Below the pieces are notes generated by a model that saw only the letters and a program-made list of their open reading frames with translations, was not told where the DNA came from and made no database searches. Below, piece after piece: positions 2 through 60,309 of a stretch of DNA of 64,000 nucleotides (within the stretch, counting starts at the first letter, position 1; every line of letters starts with the position of its first letter). The translations under genes were made by a program, and so were the position numbers. Source of the stretch: Minisyncoccota bacterium (GTDB lineage Bacteria > Patescibacteriota > Minisyncoccia > Phycocordibacterales > UBA6899); the NCBI GenBank assembly GCA_035583355.1, contig DATEZQ010000003.1:193844-257843 (forward strand), given 5' to 3'.

Positions 2-352
2 TATGAGGTCATTCACGCGCGCGACGGCAATGAGGCTCGTGAAATGGCGAGGCGTTTGCATCCTGACGTACTCTTGACCGACAATCGTATGCCGGTCATT
101 GAAGGACTTACATTAATCTCCACGCTTCACCACGAGAAGGAGACAATGGATTTGCCTTGCATCTTGCTCACTAATGACGACCTTTCGCTCGAAGCGGAAA
201 AGGTAATCAATGAGATTGGGGCTCTTTATGTACCGAAAGCAGAATTTAAGACGCACATCTGGTCAGCACTTGAGACTTGTTTGCATAAGATTGGGAAGGA
301 AATTCCAGGTCCTGCGAAGGAATTCACTGCGAACTTGCTTGGAAAACAGTAG
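2..352 (+). CDS. response regulator receiver domain protein (5' partial, runs off window start)
   Basis: Frame extends to position 2. Translation ...YEVIHARDGNEAREMARRLHPDVLLTDNRMPVIEGLTLISTL has the CheY-like D..MP..G/EG receiver signature. Confidence 0.55.
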   Translation, partial: YEVIHARDGNEAREMARRLHPDVLLTDNRMPVIEGLTLISTLHHEKETMDLPCILLTNDDLSLEAEKVINEIGALYVPKAEFKTHIWSALETCLHKIGKEIPGPAKEFTANLLGKQ

Positions 353-621
353 ACAAAAAAGAACCCGCGTTGGGTTCTTTTTATATTCAAGTTTTCCACA
401 GCGAAATATAATTTTGGATGTTATACTCAAAATTCATGACCAACCCGACGCACATTTTCGTTACAACATTGCTAGGCTGTCTCCTGGGTGCAACCCATGC
501 AATTGCGGCTACAGTTCCTGCACTCGTTTTGCCATTTTAACATTCATATCTATTGAGCGTTGACGTTACCCCTTGCACATAGTAGGGTTGCGTTAGCGCT
601 TTTTTGTTCCTTGGAGGGAAT

Positions 622-1653
622 ATGGCGACGAAGCAACTCACTTTCAAATCCGGTGAAGATGAAATCACCATTTCGCTGGATGGAACCGTGGTGGCGGTCA
701 TTCGTTACTGCCTCAACAAGATCTATCAAGTCGAGCTCTCACAAAAGATCTCGAGAATACTTGAATACCAGATCCTCTGTCACGTCTATCTTCTTTCGAA
801 TGTCGATGCGGGTGAAAAGACAATGCCACTCGACGCAGTGCTCGCGCTGCCCCAGCATGAAGTGCGCAATGAATTGCGGCGTCGCGATATCGCGATGGTG
901 CGCGTTGCCTATGAGCACCTCACTGAGGCGCTTGCGGCAGTCATGAAGCGCGTTTCGCAGCAGTACCTTTCTGTGCAGGTTGTGCCACATGGGTTCAACT
1001 ATCGCGATCATGTACATCTTGTATTCGATCTGCACAGCAAGCAGGAATTCAATTTCTGGATGTGCATGTCAGTTCCGAATTCGGACGAACATGACCTTCA
1101 TGTCGTTCCCGGATATCATCCGTGCATGAATGGCAAGAAGGGTATTCACATGATCAATGGTGATACCGACCACCGTACGCATGGATATGCCGTGGTAAGA
1201 GTCGAGAGTCCTCTCGAGTCGCGGGCGGAAATGGGTAAGCATAGAGCCGCTTCCACTTGGTCGAACCTCACGCACCCCTTCTGTGCGAAAGGGAGGAGTG
1301 TCGTGGTCACCGTCCGCGAAGGCCTGCTCCGCACTAAGGATGGTGTTCGCGAACTATCACGTTTTCTTCTTGCAGCACTTGGGAAGACCGATGAGTATGT
1401 CGAAGTGAGTGGAGGCTTCAGTGCCCCGCTCAAGTGCGCTCATAATCGCCTCATCGAGAAGCGCATTCCGTCGCCATCTCAGAAGAAGCACTTTGGACAG
1501 AGCGTGCGAGGTTCAGAGCAACATTGCGTGTGGGCATATCGCACACTACTCGCCGAGGGAAAACTCGAAGGCGCTTACGTACCCAAGTGGTTTATCGAGG
1601 AGGACTGGCTCGGCATCTACAAAGGCGCCGAAGAAAAGCCTGGTCTCTACTGA
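622..1653 (+). CDS. hypothetical protein
   Basis: Long ORF. ATG at 622 follows GGAGGG. Terminator hairpin 1659-1682 lies downstream. Confidence 0.5.
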   Translation: MATKQLTFKSGEDEITISLDGTVVAVIRYCLNKIYQVELSQKISRILEYQILCHVYLLSNVDAGEKTMPLDAVLALPQHEVRNELRRRDIAMVRVAYEHLTEALAAVMKRVSQQYLSVQVVPHGFNYRDHVHLVFDLHSKQEFNFWMCMSVPNSDEHDLHVVPGYHPCMNGKKGIHMINGDTDHRTHGYAVVRVESPLESRAEMGKHRAASTWSNLTHPFCAKGRSVVVTVREGLLRTKDGVRELSRFLLAALGKTDEYVEVSGGFSAPLKCAHNRLIEKRIPSPSQKKHFGQSVRGSEQHCVWAYRTLLAEGKLEGAYVPKWFIEEDWLGIYKGAEEKPGLY

Positions 1654-1658
1654 AATAT

Positions 1659-1682
1659 AGCCCGTCTCCGGACGGGTTTTTC
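1659..1682 (+). terminator. rho-independent terminator
   Basis: Hairpin cccgtc-tccg-gacggg followed by a T-run. Confidence 0.6.
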
Positions 1683-1740
1683 TGTTGCTTTACGGAAAAG
1701 TCAGCGATGTTATATTAAAGAGAGACAACAAGGAGGCATT

Positions 1741-2112
1741 ATGTCGCTTACCCCAGGAGATGATTGTGTTGCGCTAACCTATTCTGCGCATTGGGTCTTC
1801 GACGCAAAGCACGAGGAAGACCTCAAGGCGGCGGGTGATGACCCTGCGCTCATTTCGCTCGTGAATCACCAGGCGAATATGCGGCAATACCTTGCCGCAA
1901 AGGAGCAGCTCGAAGGAAAGAAGATTACCATTGGTTATGCGCTTGATGTGCAAGGGAAGTACATCGGAGGCACATTCATGGTGTGCGAAGTGTTTCCCGA
2001 GATGAGTATGAAGCGCTCGTTCTTCACGATGTTCGCGTATCCTATGGCACCGGGGGCAGTACGACTCACTCGTCTCCATGTCATTCGTGCAACGACAATT
2101 ATGTTTTCATAA
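1741..2112 (+). CDS. hypothetical protein
   Basis: AAGGAGG at about 1730 precedes the ATG. Terminator-like hairpin acacgcgac..gtcgcgtgtttttt at 2116-2145. Confidence 0.45.
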   Translation: MSLTPGDDCVALTYSAHWVFDAKHEEDLKAAGDDPALISLVNHQANMRQYLAAKEQLEGKKITIGYALDVQGKYIGGTFMVCEVFPEMSMKRSFFTMFAYPMAPGAVRLTRLHVIRATTIMFS

Positions 2113-2236
2113 ACAATACACGCGACTCGTCGCGTGTTTTTTATTTCATGCCCCATCTTGCTTGTCTAAATGAATATTGTGCTCCATGCCCAGTATGGTA
2201 GAGTCTTGGAAGAATGTACGCTGAAAGGAGAGCTTT

Positions 2237-3022
2237 ATGTATAACGCGCGCGAAAGAGGGCGTGCGTATGCTTCACGTCCACTCTCACCAGCATTCAAGC
2301 CACATCAAGTAATCCAGAATGAAAAAGCGGAAACGCTCGCTTACGCATGTTTTTCCCATCGACATGACCTTCTCGTGCGCCGAGAGTCGACATATGCGGG
2401 TGGACCACAGGGGTGTCCGCTCATGTTCAAGGATAGGATTCTTGTAGGAAAGCAGGCATTTGAGCGGCTGCGGACTTATGGCATTGCAATCCCATTCTTT
2501 TCCTACGTCATAGCCGAGAGTACGGCGCAGCATCGCCCGTGTCTTCTTACGGTCATTGAGCGAGTTAATGGAAAGAACGTGACTGATATTGCTCCCGCAA
2601 GTAAAAAACTAGCGCGAGATGTTGAAGGAGTGTTCATACGATTCCTGAATTACCTCAAGGATACAAAGGAGTCGGGCGGTCCATTCTGGAGCGACTTCAA
2701 TATTCACCAGTTCATGTATGGCACGCTCGAAAGGGACCCCCATCCAAGGATCTATCTTGTTGATGTGGAGCCCTATGCAGGGAAGTGGCCGGCACCCGGA
2801 AGTGCTACTCCCGAGGCCGAATTGATGCTCACTCGTGGTTATCTCATGCAGCTGATGAGTGTATATTTGGGCATTGATGGATTCGAAACGCGCAATAACA
2901 ACGGAATTTTGCTGAAGCGTGCACGTGTGCTACTTGAAATTGCCGTTCGCTCTATCCCTCCTGCTCCTTTGTATAACGAATTTCGGGATAATCTCCTGCT
3001 CTTGCTTACGTGGAAGGCATGA
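2237..3022 (+). CDS. hypothetical protein
   Basis: 261 aa ORF with an AAAGGAGAG SD. Terminator 3026-3056 directly after. Confidence 0.5.
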   Translation: MYNARERGRAYASRPLSPAFKPHQVIQNEKAETLAYACFSHRHDLLVRRESTYAGGPQGCPLMFKDRILVGKQAFERLRTYGIAIPFFSYVIAESTAQHRPCLLTVIERVNGKNVTDIAPASKKLARDVEGVFIRFLNYLKDTKESGGPFWSDFNIHQFMYGTLERDPHPRIYLVDVEPYAGKWPAPGSATPEAELMLTRGYLMQLMSVYLGIDGFETRNNNGILLKRARVLLEIAVRSIPPAPLYNEFRDNLLLLLTWKA

Positions 3023-6949: not shown

Positions 6950-7282
6950 AATTCGAATGAAGTATGAATTGTATAAAGAAAAACCATCGCTTAGGATGAG
7001 TCGAGAGATGTAGCACGTGTATGCGTGATACAAGGGTGACCGGTTACGCCAGTAGCTCCGCACGGTTCAGGCGTCCAAATAAGAACCGCGTTTCATTGCT
7101 TCCACCTAAGTATGTATAGTGAATTATGGTTTGCATTTTAAGTCAAGCATTTTATACTTGACTAATATAATTGTAAGTGTCATATGGGTTGTCCTAGGGC
7201 AGGTGCACAAATTCGATATTGTTCTCGTTGCATTTCTGTTTGGTTGTTGTAGTGTAACTTCAGAAAAGTATATGGAGATTCT

Positions 7283-14357: not shown

Positions 14358-15551
14358 ATGGCAGCAGAAGCATTTGATCGTTCAAAGCCACACGTTAACG
14401 TGGGCACCATCGGTCACGTCGACCACGGCAAGACCACTCTTACCGCAGCGATCCTCCACGTGCTCCACATGGCAGGTTGTGAGGTGAAGATGAAGGGAGT
14501 TAACGAAATCGACTCAGCACCAGAGGAGAAGGAGCGCGGTATTACTATCGCCCTCTCACACAATGAGTATTCTACAAAGACCCGCCACTACGCACACATC
14601 GACGCACCGGGCCACGCAGACTACATCAAGAACATGATCACCGGAGCAGCACAAATGGACGGTGCAATCATCGTCGTTGCAGCAACCGATGGTCCTATGC
14701 CACAGACACGTGAGCACATCCTTCTTGCAAAGCAGGTCGGCGTACCTCGCATCATCGTCTTCTTGAACAAGGTAGACATGGTTGATGACGCTGATCTCGT
14801 TGACCTCGTTGAGGAGGAGATCCGTGATCTTCTCGAGAAGCAGGGCTTCGATCGCAATTGTCCAGTTATCCGTGGTTCAGGTCTCAAGGGACTCGAGGCT
14901 ACATCAGTTGATGACGAGTGGGCAAAGAAGATTCTTGAGCTCACTGATGCTCTCGATACCTACATCCCAGTTCCACAGCGTGATACAGCAAAGCCATTCC
15001 TTATGCCAGTTGAGGACATCTTCTCAATTGAAGGTCGTGGTACGGTTGTGACCGGAAAGATCGAGCGCGGTATCATCAAGGTTGGACAGGACATTGAGAT
15101 CGTTGGTCTCAAGGATACTGTAAAGACAACAGTGACTGGTATTGAAATGTTCAACAAGTCACTCCAGGAGGGTATGGCCGGCGACAATGCAGGTATTCTC
15201 ATCCGCGGTATCAAGAAGGAGGACGTTACTCGTGGTCAGGTGCTTGCAGCACTCGGCTCAGTAACTCCACACTCAGAGTTCGAGGCAGAGGTGTATATCC
15301 TCAGCAAGGACGAGGGTGGACGCCACACACCATTCTTCTCAGGCTACAAGCCACAGTTCTACATCCGTACAACGGACGTGACTGGTGAGGTTACACTCAA
15401 GGAGGGTGTTGAGATGGTTATGCCAGGCGATACTGTTACCTTCAAGGTAAAGTTGATCGCTCCAGTTGCACTCGAGGACCAGACACGTTTCGCTATCCGC
15501 GAGGGTGGTCGTACAGTCGGTGCTGGTGTCGTAACAAAGATCGTTAAGTAA
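14358..15551 (+). CDS. tuf: translation elongation factor Tu
   Basis: [32 protein letters not shown]...DAPGHADY...NKVD... full length, 397 aa. Confidence 0.97.
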
Positions 15552-15574
15552 TAAACAAGTCTTTTTGCTCAATC

Positions 15575-15637
15575 TTGCAGTGGTTCGCCGCGCGACTCGC
15601 TCGATGTACTCAATGTACATCTCGCTAGAGTTCGCAC
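15575..15637 (+). repeat. intergenic repeat family copy D (downstream of tuf)
   Basis: gcgactcgctcgatgtactcaatgtacatctcgctagagttcgcacggctcc. Shares gcgactcgctc, the GTAC-core palindrome and ctcgctagagttcgcacg.ctcc with copy A. Confidence 0.6.
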
Positions 15638-15829
15638 GGCTCCACCACCGCAACCTTGAACAAAAATCTCTTGTTTATGAAAAACGATAAATGTTCGTAA
15701 TCGTTCCCGTAATGGTGTGACGATTCGTCCCATCATTATTAGAACAAAATCCTACGTTTACTGAAATATATGACAACTGCGGAACACACAACGAAGAAGG
15801 CAGCTGCGAAAAAGGTAGAAGGAGGAGGC

Positions 15830-16129
15830 ATGCTCCGCATCCGCGTACGTGCATACGAGTCAAAGATCCTCGACGCTTCAGTGCGCCAGATCATGGACAC
15901 GGCTGCTCGTCTCGAGGCGTCGGTGCACGGACCAATCCCACTTCCAACCCACATCACCAAGTATACGGTGAATCGCGCGACCTTCGTCTATAAGGATGCC
16001 CGAGAGCAGTTCGAAATGCGCATTCATAAGCGCCTTATCGACATCTTGAATCCAAACCAGAAGATCATTGAGGCGCTCACAAACTTGACCCTTCCGTCAG
16101 GAGTGAACATCGATGTGAAGATGATGTAA
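15830..16129 (+). CDS. rpsJ: 30S ribosomal protein S10
   Basis: [15 protein letters not shown]... GGAGGAGG SD immediately before the ATG at 15830. The ORF track starts at 15770, giving an unlikely N-terminal extension. Confidence 0.88.
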
Positions 16130-16314
16130 TCTGAGCTTGCTCAAATTACACCAGTGCTTGTAATAGCATATGGTTATGTCAGTGATGACATGCACCGCAT
16201 TGAAAATTATAGGTAGTCCTCGATGATGTTGTCCGCAAGGCAACCGCTCACGGAACTACTGGAGTCCAAGACTCTTTACGCCTATGGGTTTACCCATACG
16301 CACTATTAAGTCAT

Positions 16315-16344
16315 GGCCACGTCTACTTTATTGTAGACGTGGCC
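16315..16344 (+). promoter_or_regulatory. perfect 12 bp stem hairpin in the rpsJ-rplC spacer
   Basis: ggccacgtctac-tttatt-gtagacgtggcc lies within an unusual 260 nt gap between rpsJ and rplC. Confidence 0.4.
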
Positions 16345-16391
16345 CTCTGACATGATGGTTCCCACAAATCATCATTAACTAAAATAAATTT

Positions 16392-17006
16392 ATGAAGTAT
16401 ATTCTCGGAACAAAGCAGCAGATGACACAGTTCTACACCGCCGATGGCAAGTGTGTAGCAGCAACCGTCCTCGTAGCTGGCCCAATCACCGTGACTGCAG
16501 TCAAGAACGTTGAACGCGATGGCTATGTCGCAGCACAGATTGGTTTTGGTAAGCAGCTTCCTCAGCGCCTCAACAAGGCACAGGTCGGAGCACTCAAGGA
16601 TCTTGGTTCATTCAAGACACTCCGTGAGTTCCGTCCAAAGAATGGTGAGCTCGATGTCACTGTCGGTCAGACGATCGGCGCAGATGTCTTCTCAGCAGGA
16701 GATGCCGTCACGGTATCCGCTACCTCAAAGGGTAAGGGATTCCAGGGAGGTGTGAAGCGCCACGGTTTCCATGGTGGTCCTCGTTCTCACGGACAGGCAC
16801 ACTCAGAGCGTGAAGTTGGTTCTATCGGTGCCGGTGGTATGCAGCGCGTCATGAAGGGACTCCGCATGCCAGGTCGCATGGGTAGTGACAAGGTCACGGT
16901 CAAGGGTCTCTCGATTCTCGCAGTCGATCCCGTTAATAATCTCCTCGTTGTTTCTGGTGCAGTACCAGGACGCCGCGGAACTGTTGTCGAAGTAACTGGT
17001 AACTAA
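16392..17006 (+). CDS. rplC: 50S ribosomal protein L3
   Basis: MKYILGTKQQMTQFYTADGKCVAATVL... L3 family. Confidence 0.93.
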   Translation: MKYILGTKQQMTQFYTADGKCVAATVLVAGPITVTAVKNVERDGYVAAQIGFGKQLPQRLNKAQVGALKDLGSFKTLREFRPKNGELDVTVGQTIGADVFSAGDAVTVSATSKGKGFQGGVKRHGFHGGPRSHGQAHSEREVGSIGAGGMQRVMKGLRMPGRMGSDKVTVKGLSILAVDPVNNLLVVSGAVPGRRGTVVEVTGN

Positions 17007-17007
17007 T

Positions 17008-17694
17008 ATGGCAAAAACACAAATTTCGCTTGAAGCACCTGTTTACTCAGCAGCAGGCAAGAAGGCAGGTACCATCACACTCGCAGAGTCAGTGTTCGGT
17101 GCAAAATGGAATGCAGACCTTGTTCACCAGGTAGTACTTGGTATGCAGGCAAATGCACGCCAGCCTTGGGCACACACAAAGGATCGCTCAGAGATCTCCG
17201 GAGGTGGCCGCAAGCCATGGAAGCAGAAGGGAACTGGTCGTGCTCGTCACGGATCATCACGTTCTCCAATCTGGCGCCACGGTGGTGTCACGTTCGGTCC
17301 TCGCAATGACAAGGACTACTCAGTCAAGATCAACCGCAAGATGCGTGTGAACGCACTCTTCTCTGTACTTTCAAAGAAGTATGCAGCAGGTCAGGTCCTC
17401 TTCGTTAACGAGCTTGCACTCGCAGCTCCAAAGACAGCAGAGGCACGTGAGATCATGACCAAGCTTGGAACCATTGCTGGTTTCGAGGAGGTAGGAACAC
17501 GTCGCAAGAATGCTCTCTACGTTGTACTTCCAAAGATGGACGTTGCAGCAAAGAAGAGCTTCCAGAACATGGGTAATGTACTCATGGGAACAGTAAGCAC
17601 ACTCAATCCGGTCGATGTGCTTTCATATAAGTATCTCGTGCTTGTCGCACCAGAGGAGTCTGTAAAGGCACTCGAGGCAAAGCTTGCAAAATAA
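17008..17694 (+). CDS. rplD: 50S ribosomal protein L4
   Basis: Begins 2 nt after rplC. L4 family (…GGGRKPWKQKGTGRAR…). Confidence 0.93.
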   Translation: MAKTQISLEAPVYSAAGKKAGTITLAESVFGAKWNADLVHQVVLGMQANARQPWAHTKDRSEISGGGRKPWKQKGTGRARHGSSRSPIWRHGGVTFGPRNDKDYSVKINRKMRVNALFSVLSKKYAAGQVLFVNELALAAPKTAEAREIMTKLGTIAGFEEVGTRRKNALYVVLPKMDVAAKKSFQNMGNVLMGTVSTLNPVDVLSYKYLVLVAPEESVKALEAKLAK

Positions 17695-17698
17695 TCAT

Positions 17699-18067
17699 AT
17701 GGGAATTTTTTCAAAGAAAGACGCTGCAGTCGCAGCAACAGACGAGAAGGTAGTTATCGTTCCTGCTCACCAGCAGGGTGGTATCGATCTCTCTGAGGTC
17801 CTCATCGCTCCACGCATTACTGAGAAGTCAGCAAAGCAGTCGGAGGAAAACGTTTACGCATTTGAAATCAATGCACGCGCAAACAAGCACCAGGTCGCAC
17901 AGGCAGTTGCTACATTCTACAAGATCACTCCAGTGAAGGTTGCTATCGTCAACGTACCGACGAAGTATGCAAAGAATTGGAAGACTGGTCGTACCCAGGT
18001 CAAGAAGCCAGGGATGAAGAAGGCAATGGTCTACGTTAAGAAGGGTGAGACGATCGCCTTTGTGTAA
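17699..18067 (+). CDS. rplW: 50S ribosomal protein L23
   Basis: …LIAPRITEKSAKQSEENVYAFEINARANKHQVAQAV… L23 family. ATG at 17699 follows the L4 stop. Confidence 0.85.
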   Translation: MGIFSKKDAAVAATDEKVVIVPAHQQGGIDLSEVLIAPRITEKSAKQSEENVYAFEINARANKHQVAQAVATFYKITPVKVAIVNVPTKYAKNWKTGRTQVKKPGMKKAMVYVKKGETIAFV

Positions 18068-18094
18068 TTAGGTATAAATAGAACATAAAATCAT

Positions 18095-18943
18095 ATGAAA
18101 ACATTTAAACCAACTACACCAAGTCGTCGTAACACCGTTTTGACTCCCTACAAGGAGCTCCTCTCAGGTGATCAGACCGCAAAGCCAAAGGGACTCGTCA
18201 AGGGTGAGAAGCGCGCTATGGGCCGCAACAACGCAGGTCGCATCACAATGCGTCACCGCGGTGGTGGTAACAAGAAGCTTCTCCGTGTTGTTGACTTCAA
18301 GTTTGACAAGAAGGACGTTCCTGCTCGTGTAGAGGCCGTACAGTACGACCCACTCCGCACAGGTTTCGTCGCACTCGTTGTATATCGTGACGGTGAGCGC
18401 CGCTACATTCTTGCTCCAAAGGGCATGAAGGCAGGTGATACCATCATGGTCAGCGAGACTGCACCAATTGCTCCAGGTAACCGCCTTCCACTCCGCAAGA
18501 TCCCAGTGGGTACATTCGTGTACAACATCGAGATCAAGCCAGAGGGAGGTGCTAAGGTAGCCCGCGCTGCTGGTAACTTCGTTGAGCTTATCGCTAACGA
18601 CGATGGACAGGCATTCCTTAAGATGCCATCATCTGAGGTCCGTAAGGTCTCAGAGAACTGCTGGGCAACTATCGGTCAGGTATCAAACGATCAGTACAAG
18701 CTTCGTAACGAAGGTAAGGCTGGCCGTAATCGCTGGATGGGTATTCGCCCAACTGTGCGTGGTACTGCTATGAATCCCGTTGACCATCCACACGGTGGTG
18801 GTGAGGGACGTCAGGGCCGTGGACTTCGCCGTGCGAAGACCATGTGGGGTAAGCCATCAGGAAAGGGACAGAAGACACGTTCACCAAAGAAGTACTCGAA
18901 TGTCTTTGTGGTCACGCGTCGCGTTGTCGGAAAGAAAAAGTAA
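18095..18943 (+). CDS. rplB: 50S ribosomal protein L2
   Basis: MKTFKPTTPSRRNTV...GRNNAGRITMRHRGGG... L2 family. Confidence 0.95.
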   Translation: MKTFKPTTPSRRNTVLTPYKELLSGDQTAKPKGLVKGEKRAMGRNNAGRITMRHRGGGNKKLLRVVDFKFDKKDVPARVEAVQYDPLRTGFVALVVYRDGERRYILAPKGMKAGDTIMVSETAPIAPGNRLPLRKIPVGTFVYNIEIKPEGGAKVARAAGNFVELIANDDGQAFLKMPSSEVRKVSENCWATIGQVSNDQYKLRNEGKAGRNRWMGIRPTVRGTAMNPVDHPHGGGEGRQGRGLRRAKTMWGKPSGKGQKTRSPKKYSNVFVVTRRVVGKKK

Positions 18944-19042
18944 TTTTATTTCCACAAAACAAAAAGCGCCTTCGGGCGTTTTTTGTTTTGCGGAAATAAA
19001 ATTACTTTTTCTTTACGTTCACCTGCTGGGTGACGGCCGCAT

Positions 19043-19265
19043 CTTTTTGCTTGGATCGGCCTCACGCTTCGCCCACGACTCATGTCAATATTTTGTTCGC
19101 AAGGCTCCAAAATATTGTATGGTCTCGGGCCCGCCTCGCCGTCTCGAGGACTCGACATGGCTCCGGCTTACTCGCGGGAAAATGTTTCACATTTTCGATT
19201 CCCGCTCGTACTCCCTGCACCACTTTACACTATCGGACTCCAGCGAGGCCGCTGCAAGCAAAAAT
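19043..19265 (+). repeat. intergenic repeat family copy C (long form, downstream of rplB)
   Basis: Starts ctttttgcttgg..cggcctcacgcttcgccc and ends ggactccagcgaggccgctgcaagcaaaaat. Same termini as the short copy at 45462-45545, with about 130 nt of extra internal sequence. Confidence 0.65.
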
Positions 19266-19444
19266 CTGAGCGGGTACATTTTCTTGTATTTTACAGATTA
19301 AATATTAGTGCTACTCTATTATTACAAGCGGGGTAAATGCCAGCCTAACGAGGTGCTCGCGGAAATTTCAATTTGCTGCTTATTCGAATCACTAAAAATA
19401 ATCGCAATGAACATTTTTACAAAGATCGGCACGGAGGTCATCAT

Positions 19445-19550
19445 GCGGGGGAGGGTTCTTGACTCCTCTGATGCAAGTTTTTGTAGGCATTTAGTGGGCT
19501 GTCATCATCCCTGTATGATGACAAGGCGGGTTCAACTCCCGCCCTCCGCA
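19445..19550 (+). ncRNA. tRNA-like/tmRNA-like structured RNA candidate #1
   Basis: 5' GCGGGGG pairs 7/7 (one G-U) with 3' CCTCCGC. T-arm GCGGG-TTCAACT-CCCGC. Discriminator A, CCA not encoded. Terminator hairpin follows at 19566-19592. At 106 nt it does not fold as a canonical tRNA. Confidence 0.35.
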
Positions 19551-19565
19551 TAATTTTTATAAATA

Positions 19566-19592
19566 CTAAAAAACGCTAAATAGCGTTTTTTA
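19566..19592. terminator. bidirectional rho-independent terminator
   Basis: aaaaaacgcta-aa-tagcgtttttt. Serves the RNA candidate on + and the HEPN gene on -. Confidence 0.6.
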
Positions 19593-20165
19593 GTTTCTTG
19601 GTGTGTTCTCGATTAATATTTCTACTAGCGACCTAAGTGCGAAATATCCATTTCGAACTAAAATTTGATCTCTTATCGAATTTGGATCTTTCGTTCCATG
19701 AAAAAGATTATTACGAATTTGATACAACACCTCAACCATATTGCTCCAATCTTCTTGGTTATTTATGTTTCCCCGATCATCGCGAACCCCTATAAACTTA
19801 TTGCGGGAGGAGTTGTTCCACCAGCCAGCATCACCCTGAAGACCAGTATCATTAAGTTCATTCATGAGTTCAAGCCAGCTTCCTCTTAGTACTGAGTCCT
19901 TAGCAATTTGATTGATGTAATGCTGCTGCACGGTGGTTTCAGCCTTTAATATTTGAATCGAGCTACGCTCTTTCCCGTCCCCTCGATATAGCTGTCTTAT
20001 GAGTGATACAAACGCTAGATACTCCACCATGAATAGAATGAAAAAATCAATATTTGCTTTATTGTGCCAATCAATTGCTCTTTTTAAGAAATCAACAGGA
20101 GTTGCTCCTTCAAGCATTTTCATTAAAGCATTGATTTGCATCTGCAATTCTTCTAGGGTTGCCAT
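19590..20165 (-). CDS. HEPN-motif protein (putative Abi-like RNase)
   Basis: C-terminal QIRNNLFHGTKD matches the HEPN Rx4HG motif. Start chosen at MATLEEL. Confidence 0.45.
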   Translation of the reverse strand: MATLEELQMQINALMKMLEGATPVDFLKRAIDWHNKANIDFFILFMVEYLAFVSLIRQLYRGDGKERSSIQILKAETTVQQHYINQIAKDSVLRGSWLELMNELNDTGLQGDAGWWNNSSRNKFIGVRDDRGNINNQEDWSNMVEVLYQIRNNLFHGTKDPNSIRDQILVRNGYFALRSLVEILIENTPRN

Positions 20166-20248
20166 ATAGGTATTATATTCCAAACTAACAATACTTCAAT
20201 TTTATCTACTTGAGTGTGGACTGAGCTGGCATGTGCTAATATGAATAC

Positions 20249-20524
20249 GTGACCAAGAACCCAAAAAATATATTTGTACCTGATGCGGTGCTGGATCTGC
20301 AGAGGCTGTCGATGAAACAGGCGACGGCGAAGTTGAAGAATTTGCGCAGCAGCTACAAGAAGGGGACGAAGGTGCGCATACTCATCGGGAAGGGTGGGTA
20401 TGGATCAGCGCCTCCGGAGATCCCGACGCTGACGAAGAAATTTCTCACCAATGAGGGCTATGCTTGGTCCTATGCCAAGCCGGTGGATGGTGGTGATGGA
20501 GCGCTTGATTGTATTATCGAGTAG
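20249..20524 (+). CDS. Smr-domain protein
   Basis: VLDLQRLSMKQATAKLKNLRSSYKKGTKVRILIGKGGYGS resembles the Smr core (LDLHG...A...L...V.IIHGKG). Confidence 0.5.
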   Translation: MTKNPKNIFVPDAVLDLQRLSMKQATAKLKNLRSSYKKGTKVRILIGKGGYGSAPPEIPTLTKKFLTNEGYAWSYAKPVDGGDGALDCIIE

Positions 20525-20539
20525 TCATAACAAACAGAA

Positions 20540-20572
20540 TACTGTTCAATAAAAAATGGGGCCTGGCCCCAT
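20540..20572. terminator. bidirectional terminator
   Basis: aaaaaatggggcc-tg-gccccattttt between convergent genes. Confidence 0.6.
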
Positions 20573-20604
20573 TTTTGTTTTTCTACTGAGCGATACTTAT
20601 TTGT

Positions 20605-45423: not shown

Positions 45424-45461
45424 AGTATTCCTTCCGTGTACCAAATATCCGCACTGGTCTT

Positions 45462-45545
45462 TTTGTCTGGGGCGACCTCACGCTTCGCCCTCCATGTACC
45501 ACTGTACATTATCGGGCTCCAGCGAGGCCGCCGCAGACAAAAATA
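45462..45545 (+). repeat. intergenic repeat family copy B (short form, downstream of secY)
   Basis: ctttttgtctggggcgacctcacgcttcgccc...gtaccactgtac...gggctccagcgaggccgccgcagacaaaaat. Its termini match the long copy at 19043-19265. Confidence 0.65.
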
Positions 45546-55149: not shown

Positions 55150-58132
<2,983 letters not shown>

Positions 58133-58265: not shown

Positions 58266-58377
58266 AGAGGTGGCTCGACGTTGTGGACCCACCCGGTCTC
58301 ATTCCGAACCCGGAAGTGAAACATGATAGTGCCAATGATACTCTTCAGAAGAGGGGAAAGTAGGTAGCTGCCTCGAT
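58266..58377 (+). rRNA. rrf: 5S ribosomal RNA
   Basis: gtggacccacccggtctcattccgaacccggaagtgaaac matches the 5S loop B/helix III consensus. Terminal helix gaggtggc/gctgcctc. Confidence 0.85.
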
Positions 58378-60099: not shown

Positions 60100-60127
60100 T
60101 TGACTTTTGGCGAATATCGGGTAGTAT
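60100..60127 (+). promoter_or_regulatory. sigma70-like promoter and ~180 nt leader of rplJL
   Basis: TTGACT, 16 nt spacer, TAGTAT. The leader (60128-60309) is at the position of the L10(L12)4 autoregulatory leader. Confidence 0.4.
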
Positions 60128-60309
60128 TTGACTCAACGCTGAAGACAGCAGGTGTTCCGACAAAGGAACTTAATCTCCTGCCGAAGTACCAACTCTACCC
60201 ACTTTTTTGGGCGGTTGATCTTCTCGTTAAGGTCGATCTTTTTATTTAGCAGAACTTTCCGTTAGCACCAGCGACGCAGCAAAGTTCTTGCTAAATTAAC
60301 ATAATTTAC

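Follow-up and report, generated by a model that had tools for sequence, protein, structure and literature searches.

When two genes that carry conflict-type domains lie side by side, do their products work together? This question is raised by a locus in a 64-kb stretch of DNA (hereafter, the window) on a metagenome-assembled-genome contig of Candidatus Paceibacterota, a lineage of the candidate phyla radiation (CPR). At this locus, the gene of a 191-amino-acid (aa) HEPN-like protein and the gene of a 91-aa Smr-domain protein are transcribed divergently, next to a tRNA-like element. The HEPN superfamily consists of metal-independent endoribonucleases, and HEPN and Smr domains are both found in conflict systems elsewhere. 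An earlier note, made from the sequence alone, had proposed that the two genes form a two-component defence or toxin-immunity module. Both open reading frames (ORFs) are found where that note had placed them, and both are annotated by NCBI. The present analysis, however, does not support the HEPN-like and Smr proteins as a working pair. Rather, we consider it probable, if by no means assured, that the 191-aa protein acts alone, as a horizontally acquired HEPN-like RNase toxin residing in a variable slot.

Results

An unnamed family with a conserved arginine-histidine motif

The earlier note had described the 191-aa protein as ending with QIRNNLFHGTKD, which it matched to an Rx4HG motif. The string is present, as residues 149 to 160; however, it is not the C-terminus, as 31 residues follow it. 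By our own estimate, a lone Rx4H would occur by chance in about one-fifth of proteins of this size. The motif stands above chance here because R151 and H156 are conserved throughout the homologues. R151, L154, H156, and K159 are invariant in 41 full-length members of the family (20 to 42% identity), and W33, F42, F52, K74, D139, E145, N152, N153, F155, R165, D166, and L177 are nearly so. Among 47 more distant members, R151 is again invariant, and N153, L154, H156, G157, K159, R165, and D166 are each kept in at least 90%. Likewise, R151 and H156 are both invariant in a 58-sequence alignment of the C-terminal region. The family motif reads RNNLFHGxK, within the wider signature (I/V)R(N/C)NLFHGxK...RD; the residue after the conserved arginine is the polar N152 in nearly all of the 41 members and cysteine in a subset of the distant ones.

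A word-indexed search of 5.8 billion proteins returned only four relatives of the 191-aa protein, at 34 to 42% identity. With a five-sequence profile, 576 proteins were found among 1.84 billion cluster representatives at E ≤ 1e-3 (counted at 50% clustering), and 43 at E ≤ 1e-30. The 191-aa protein has no match in Pfam, NCBIfam, or PHROGs and no significant family in PADLOC, where it matched only DzbB (E = 0.0038 to 0.0041) and a DRT-associated model (E = 0.025), both weakly. The family has no Pfam model, nor does it have an NCBIfam or RefSeq name. By tblastn, no homologue was found in phage records, and RefSeq plasmids yielded three partial homologues, all labelled 'hypothetical protein'. Furthermore, no description of the family turned up in a literature search on MauJ and HEPN, on DzbB and HEPN, and on HEPN genes located between hsdM and hsdS.

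Some members are longer than the protein in the window. A C-terminal extension of about 120 aa is seen in some (L025, L032, L035, and L039; 292 to 305 aa, all from CPR bacteria), and others carry an N-terminal extension of 70 to 90 aa (extended members include P0014, P0024, and P0025). An HTH_3 domain is matched in one member and C2H2 zinc-finger domains in another. These features may be sensor or regulatory add-ons.

Predicted fold and profile links to HEPN proteins

The AlphaFold2 model of the 191-aa protein, built on the 41-sequence alignment, is all-alpha, with a predicted local distance difference test score (pLDDT) of 86.3 and a predicted template-modelling score (pTM) of 0.80. Helices span residues 4 to 18, 23 to 36, 41 to 60, 66 to 74, 77 to 89, 91 to 107, 140 to 155, and 164 to 186. 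A helical/loop insert at 66 to 139 separates helices 41 to 60 and 140 to 155, and the motif (residues 151 to 156) runs from the end of the penultimate helix into the loop before the last one. In HEPN domains, the Rx4-6H motif is placed at this very position, the residue after the arginine is typically N, D, or H, and inserts between helices 2 and 3 are common (PMC3710099). The predicted structure agrees with all three of these features. Structure prediction, which the earlier note had named as a way to examine its HEPN call, thus speaks for that call in its all-alpha fold and in the position of the R/H motif.

Profile comparisons point in the same direction. When a C-terminal 63-position profile of the family was compared with PDB sequences, Ec2ApeA ranked 1 to 3 and Ec3ApeA ranked 6 (E = 0.03 to 0.7). 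The alignment places iRNNLFHGdK...LVE of the family on tRNLIVHTGK...LVE of Ec2ApeA (residues 489 to 535), with the catalytic R502 inside. The R502A substitution in Ec2ApeA abolishes defence, and ApeA cuts tRNA anticodon loops (bioRxiv 10.64898/2026.01.26.701840). ApeA (PF18739) is the best match among solved structures (E = 0.03, through a shared R-N-x-x-x-H-x-(G)-K...LVE), and it is a single-gene anti-phage system without an antitoxin. In contrast to ApeA, which has about 590 aa, N-terminal and Mid domains, a C-terminal split HEPN domain, and a ligand pocket and assembles into decamers or dodecamers (same preprint), the 191-aa protein consists of a HEPN-like core with two N-terminal helices and itself has no PF18739 match.

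Other links come from searches with individual members. In PADLOC, DzbB was matched by 10 of the 41 members (best E 3.4e-6); the best values for other models were 6.4e-5 for CARF-HEPN, 0.0048 for Csx1, and 0.031 for Cas13a. In Pfam, the 47 distant members reached HEPN_RiboL-PSP at 0.0024 and HEPN_Apea at 0.032, the latter matched weakly by two members. The nearest Pfam family is MauJ (PF17419), matched by five of the 47 (best E 2.7e-5; 25.4 bits, below the gathering score of 28) over model positions 3 to 113 of 116; the 191-aa protein itself has no MauJ match.

DzbB is a component of the Dazbog system (PADLOC PDLC03836). Residues 65 to 184 of the 191-aa protein match positions 249 to 334 of the 341-position DzbB profile, that is, only its C-terminal quarter. 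DzbB acts with DzbA (DUF262) (PMC10952713), whereas the neighbours in the window are the Smr protein and a 173-aa protein without a DUF262 match; DUF262 does not rank in the top 25 Pfam families of our neighbour census either. MauJ, which is named after the methylamine-utilisation cluster, is covered over nearly its whole model, and MauE-like neighbours are present at two loci of the 191-aa family, but all MauJ matches stay below the gathering score. From these alignments, DzbB and MauJ may share a domain with the 191-aa family.

Several observations weigh against the HEPN assignment. Foldseek comparison of the pLDDT-86 model with PDB and BFVD gave nothing significant (E ≥ 1.9), and an earlier model (pLDDT 73) had no PDB match at E < 1, although Csm6, LsoA, Cas13a, and Csx1, among the non-significant top matches, are weak links in favour of HEPN. 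The full-length family profile found nothing relevant among PDB sequences. Pfam returned nothing for the 41 close members, no HEPN family included. No statistically significant match joins the 191-aa family to an established HEPN family, the best single profile matches being sub-threshold and drawn from multiple testing over 41 to 47 sequences. Moreover, MauJ, the nearest Pfam family, is not confirmed as HEPN. The profile searches that the earlier note had suggested had a divided outcome: relatives of the Smr protein pass the Pfam threshold (see below), but the 191-aa protein has no significant HEPN family match. The HEPN call nevertheless remains the best reading of the motif, the all-alpha model, the weak profile matches, and the genomic contexts, even though no fold or profile match is significant. 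The links are each weak, yet all run in one direction, and we hold with good confidence that the 191-aa family is HEPN.

The same matches can be read in another way. The 191-aa protein could be a MauJ/DzbB-like helical protein in which the arginine and histidine serve ligand or nucleic-acid binding or regulation, for example as an accessory or regulatory subunit of restriction-modification (R-M) and other systems. MauJ as the nearest Pfam family, DzbB as the most frequent PADLOC match, the lack of a significant HEPN fold match, and the lack of a visible antitoxin beside a supposedly toxic gene would all suit such a protein, and HEPN-like domains without RNase activity do exist (PMC3710099). 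Furthermore, no DzbB deletion could be made, 'possibly due to toxicity' (bioRxiv 10.1101/2022.05.11.491447); hence, DzbB may restrain its partner rather than be the toxin. However, HEPN domains of the inactive kind usually lose Rx4-6H (PMC3710099), whereas here R and H are invariant and a polar N is present as well. The motif also lines up with that of ApeA, whose catalytic role has been validated by experiment, and ApeA itself exemplifies single-gene HEPN defence without an antitoxin. A non-cleaving role thus appears unlikely.

Gene neighbourhoods of the family

The loci examined comprised three from exact look-ups and 48 from a scan, with one genome per species. Type I R-M genes were found at most three genes away from the family member in 10 of 50 loci: seven have the order hsdM-X-hsdS, where X is the family gene, and three further loci have hsdM within that distance. 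Stop and start codons overlap in the four hsdM-X-hsdS operons that were read (L001, L009, L010, and L016). One operon of this kind is that of Methanobrevibacter cuticularis (L040). In the census of 96 immediate neighbours, Pfam gave N6_Mtase/HsdM_N (nine), Methylase_S (six), AAA_16 (five), giant TPR proteins (three), and recombinases (two). Neighbours noted at particular loci are NurA-HerA-DruA (with an integrase close by), DUF2971, a Schlafen (SLFN)-type helicase, DUF2326, HNH, and DUF5677, among others. Among the hosts are Peribacteria, Portnoybacteria, Falkowbacteria, Nomurabacteria, Saccharibacteria, Nanoarchaeota, Thermoplasmata, Methanobrevibacter, Bathyarchaeia, Thiobacillus, Rhizobium, and Thiodiazotropha. 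Mobile defence genes typically show such a patchy distribution, which here covers CPR bacteria, DPANN and other archaea, and proteobacteria.

The HEPN clades with links to R-M systems number at least 16, and from the example of PrrC, the same paper proposes that the RNase is kept silent by the R-M complex (PMC3710099). The 191-aa family looks like one more R-M-linked HEPN clade. Its relatives between hsdM and hsdS show a PrrC-like arrangement and in this resemble the R-M-embedded HEPN genes, such as PrrC/RloC, AbiD/F, AbiU2, and AbiJ. Unlike PrrC/RloC, the 191-aa protein has no ABC-ATPase domain according to Pfam, NCBIfam, and PADLOC, and none of the Pfam models of these clades gave a match. 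The window also differs in its gene content, as tblastn with HsdM, HsdS, and HsdR gave no match there. Because no R-M gene is present in the 64 kb, the HEPN-like gene is orphan cargo at this locus.

A separate arrangement is seen at three loci (L017, L018, and L019), where the family member lies downstream of a co-directional giant gene encoding 1611 to 1648 aa. The census had counted TPR repeats in three neighbour proteins, yet a Pfam scan of the L017 giant gene found no family at E ≤ 1e-4. The giant gene and the family member could be a distinct two-gene system.

A variable slot between rplB and the Smr gene

Comparison with related genomes sets the HEPN-like gene apart from the DNA on either side (Table 1). 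In the related locus L006, the left flank, including the 3′ end of rplB, is conserved, and on the right, L006 2423 to 2716 matches window positions 20230 to 20523 at 77%, a segment that includes the Smr gene with its −10 box. Between the same flanks, L006 holds 2.16 kb with an OLD-family nuclease, as against 0.95 kb in the window; the L006 cargo consists of this nuclease (AAA_15/AAA_21 and an OLD-like TOPRIM; 320 to 2089, minus strand) and a 75-aa ORF (2149 to 2376, plus strand). In L005, similarity begins at window position 20232, the synteny from the Smr gene to YjdM is kept, and the DNA upstream is unrelated. Since three related genomes hold three different sequences there, the rplB-smr junction is a variable slot. 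In this Paceibacterota lineage, it behaves as a small defence-gene hotspot, and the Smr gene is its conserved right border, not cargo. At the other Smr loci, L057 and L058, the neighbours of the Smr gene encode an SPFH protein and pyruvate kinase.

Table 1. Features of the rplB-smr junction (window positions; a point marks features without an assigned strand)
Feature	Position	Strand	Remarks
Conserved left flank: rplB 3′ end (to 18943), terminator hairpin (18928-19017), repeated hairpin element	18880-19279	+	93-96% identical to L006 1-262
Variable segment, about 950 bp, GC 38.7%: tRNA-like element and HEPN-like gene	19280-20229	.	Other DNA in relatives
Degenerate tRNA-like element, class II-like	19443-19551	+	Minimum free energy of fold −44.3 kcal/mol, z = −3.2
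Terminator-like hairpin, bidirectional, between tRNA-like element and 3′ end of HEPN-like gene	19565-19594	.	Inverted repeat, 93% complementary
Gene of 191-aa HEPN-like protein	19590-20165	−	ATG start; NCBI VJ579_02390 (P0001, 100% identity)
RNNLFH codons, R151 to H156, predicted HEPN Rx4H catalytic motif	19698-19715	−	Read from the sequence
Promoter-like site of HEPN-like gene: TTGAAG, 16 nt, TATAAT	20172-20199	−	10 of 12 consensus matches
Gene of 91-aa Smr-domain protein	20249-20524	+	GTG start; NCBI VJ579_02395
Terminator-like hairpin past Smr gene	20552-20576	+	

Base composition distinguishes the two genes as well. The GC content is 38.4% in the HEPN-like gene versus 52.2% in the Smr gene, a gap of 14 points around a window mean of 49.0%, and at third codon positions (GC3) the values are 35.9% versus 65.2%, a gap of 29 points. 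Among gene-sized pieces of the window, GC varies with a standard deviation of 3.4%, and 0.6% of them are at or below 40%. Jointly with the solo HEPN toxin reading, and with the same fair measure of confidence, we think that the HEPN-like gene was horizontally acquired and is the sole protein-coding cargo of the variable segment.

The regulatory signals are likewise separate, with one promoter-like site and one terminator for each gene, and the divergent start codons (ATG and GTG) are 83 nt apart. The ATG of the HEPN-like gene (20165) lies only 7 nt past the −10 box TATAAT (20172 to 20177), so its mRNA is probably leaderless; an alternative TTG start at 20183 would give a 197-aa product (19590 to 20183, minus strand). 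The Smr gene has the −10 box TGcTAATAT (region 20233 to 20249), 6 to 7 nt ahead of the GTG, and also looks leaderless. Both this box and the GTG start are kept in L005 and L006.

The Smr protein and the question of a pair

The earlier note had seen an Smr-like core in the 91-aa protein and counted Smr among the nuclease domains. The Smr-like string VLDLQRLS...KVRILIGKGG is present, and the protein aligns to positions 1 to 72 of 77 of the Pfam Smr profile (PF01713) with an E value of 0.0028; its 18.2 bits fall short of the gathering score of 25.7. Even by profile search, its family numbers only 10 clusters among 5.8 billion proteins, and the members score 14 to 30 bits. Homologues at 53 to 75% identity to the 91-aa protein score 25.7 to 29.8 bits, with P0161 and P0162 above the gathering score; the Smr call is therefore right at the family level. 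The nuclease motif, however, has been lost in the clade of the window. The protein has D16-L-Q18 and I46-G-K-G49, so that GxG is kept (G47-K-G49). A deeper branch (P0160 to P0162) retains the canonical IDLHG, whereas the window branch has LDLQ(K/R), with I or V in place of the histidine ahead of GKG. The DxH histidine is needed for mRNA cleavage by SmrB, and its loss is recurrent among Smr domains that have kept their binding to collided ribosomes, for example those of MutS2 and SmrA (PMC10897456). As the DxH histidine and the histidine before GxG are both lost, the 91-aa protein is probably not a nuclease. More likely, it is a non-cleaving, possibly ribosome-associated Smr domain.

In its coverage of 72 of 77 profile positions and in the retained GxG, the protein resembles SmrB, SmrA, and the C-terminal domain of MutS2. 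In having DLQ for DxH, it differs from the Smr nucleases (SmrB/Cue2) and is like the non-cleaving Smr domains (PMC10897456); it also lacks an N-terminal extension, a KOW domain, and a MutS ATPase domain. A profile of the Smr family compared with PDB gave only spurious uL30 matches.

How likely, then, is a module of nuclease toxin and partner? The two genes are adjacent and diverge across a short spacer, and recurrence of both domains in conflict systems is general knowledge. Besides, an RNase that stalls ribosomes next to a domain that senses ribosome collisions is conceivable (PMC10897456). The pairing, however, does not recur. With a hidden Markov model of the Smr family, ORFs of at least 50 aa within 6 kb on each side gave no match at any of 50 HEPN-family loci, the only cases being the window and its identical copy L007; in the neighbour census, the 25 commonest Pfam families do not include Smr, and the HEPN-like gene is absent from all four other Smr loci (0/4). 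L006 keeps the flanks and carries a different cargo between them. Together with the strong difference in composition, the separate promoter-like sites and terminators, and the loss of the catalytic histidine from the Smr protein, these observations make a two-component defence or toxin-immunity module extremely improbable. A comparison with HepT-MntA leads the same way. HepT is a minimal HEPN toxin with RNxxxH at the end of helix 3, which resembles the 191-aa protein; in contrast, the neighbour here is an Smr domain and not a nucleotidyltransferase, no DUF86/HEPN Pfam match is obtained, and the pair is not recurrent.

The tRNA-like element

The variable segment also holds the tRNA-like element, which the earlier note had regarded as a hallmark of integration. 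A cloverleaf-like fold is real: it includes a 7-bp acceptor stem, a canonical T arm (GGCGGG-TTCAACT-CCCGCC), and a 9-bp hairpin resembling a variable arm. This would fit integration, but the element is not a recognisable tRNA, and neither an integrase nor direct repeats were found. It has no D arm, and its 'anticodon' loop has 12 nt. ARAGORN at default settings did not call it, nor did the Rfam tRNA model (no match at E ≤ 1). A tmRNA, a tRNA-Sec, and an intron-containing tRNA were considered for this segment, but the only models, obtained with relaxed ARAGORN, contradict one another. Most simply, the element can be read as a decayed class II tRNA that was carried with, or left by, an insertion.

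Another idea is that the segment forms a two-part unit, in which the tRNA-like RNA acts as a decoy, antitoxin, or substrate mimic and restrains a HEPN RNase of the anticodon-cleaving type until infection. The element and the gene are the sole contents of the variable segment and are both low in GC; the element has a stable fold (Table 1) and is flanked by a terminator and a promoter-like site, and tRNA anticodon loops are the target of ApeA and PrrC-type HEPN enzymes. If true, this would represent an RNA-protein toxin-antitoxin logic not described for HEPN enzymes. However, no similar element was found near any other family member. With a covariance model of the element, the only matches in other loci were ordinary class II tRNAs, well away from the gene, and a pattern scan of metagenomes found only unrelated tRNAs. 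A normal tRNA lies within 250 bp of the family gene in two of 41 loci scanned, which fits tRNA-linked integration and not a partnership. The promoter-like site, directly upstream of the element at 19416 to 19444, is a weak match (9 of 12 positions), and a degraded tRNA at an integration site is a simpler account. An RNA-protein unit is, in our view, very improbable.

During these searches, a Parcubacteria tRNA at L026 12386 to 12487 was recognised by the Rfam tRNA model (56.7 bits) and missed by default ARAGORN. Its length is about 102 nt, and its variable region contains two hairpins.

Wider setting of the locus

The ribosomal-protein S10 operon is split in this genome. Genes for tuf, S10, L3, L4, L23, and L2 are at 14358 to 18943, and S19, L22, and S3 follow only from 35885 (to 37534). 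The intervening DNA, about 17 kb, holds unrelated genes, which encode the Smr protein, YjdM, a PduO-type cobalamin adenosyltransferase, type IV pilin-like proteins, and a QueA-like protein. The break after rplB is common to the window and L006.

A hairpin element of about 90 nt is repeated in this lineage. Copies lie at window positions 19020 to 19279 and 45458 to 45544 and at L006 146 to 262; the first of these is split by an insert of about 136 nt (19075 to 19210). Compensatory changes are seen at three base pairs between the copies, and no Rfam family matches. The element could be a lineage-specific small RNA or a repeat resembling repetitive extragenic palindromic (REP) sequences.

The Rfam search of the window further identified 23S rRNA (55161 to 58127), 5S rRNA (58266 to 58376), and an L10 leader (60121 to 60253). 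In addition, a c-di-GMP-II riboswitch aptamer was found at 7029 to 7112 on the minus strand; at 64.6 bits, it is above the Rfam gathering score, in a CPR genome.

Discussion

For the solo toxin that we favour, the following course of events can be envisaged. The 191-aa protein would be a minimal, stand-alone HEPN RNase that serves as an abortive-infection or toxin effector. Two copies would dimerise, with R151, N152, and H156 of each building a composite active site. Upon activation, for example by phage infection, the enzyme would cut cellular RNA (tRNA, mRNA, or rRNA) in a metal-independent manner, leaving 2′,3′-cyclic phosphate ends, and so halt translation, with abortive infection as the outcome, as has been shown for ApeA and PrrC. 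In the relatives, the enzyme would be wired into type I R-M operons. RNase activity, dimerisation, the composite site, the trigger, and the role in defence are all proposed by analogy with ApeA, PrrC, and HepT. The main weakness of this model is the control of a toxic orphan RNase: the window shows no antitoxin, sensor, or R-M partner that could keep such an enzyme silent.

A broader proposal is that DzbB, through its C-terminal domain, and MauJ belong together with the 191-aa family to one unmodelled HEPN clade, which in CPR bacteria and archaea would be wired in between hsdM and hsdS as a guard in the manner of PrrC. We put this forward tentatively, as somewhat short of an even chance.

For the locus itself, the adjacency of two conflict-type domains is misleading: the Smr gene is conserved in the lineage, and its product is probably non-catalytic. 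The value of the finding lies mainly in annotation; HEPN toxins in defence contexts are already well known to specialists. The sizeable unnamed family, with its 576 representatives, is best read as another minimal-HEPN RNase clade, often located between hsdM and hsdS, and as such would be an addition to the R-M-coupled 'second-line' toxins.

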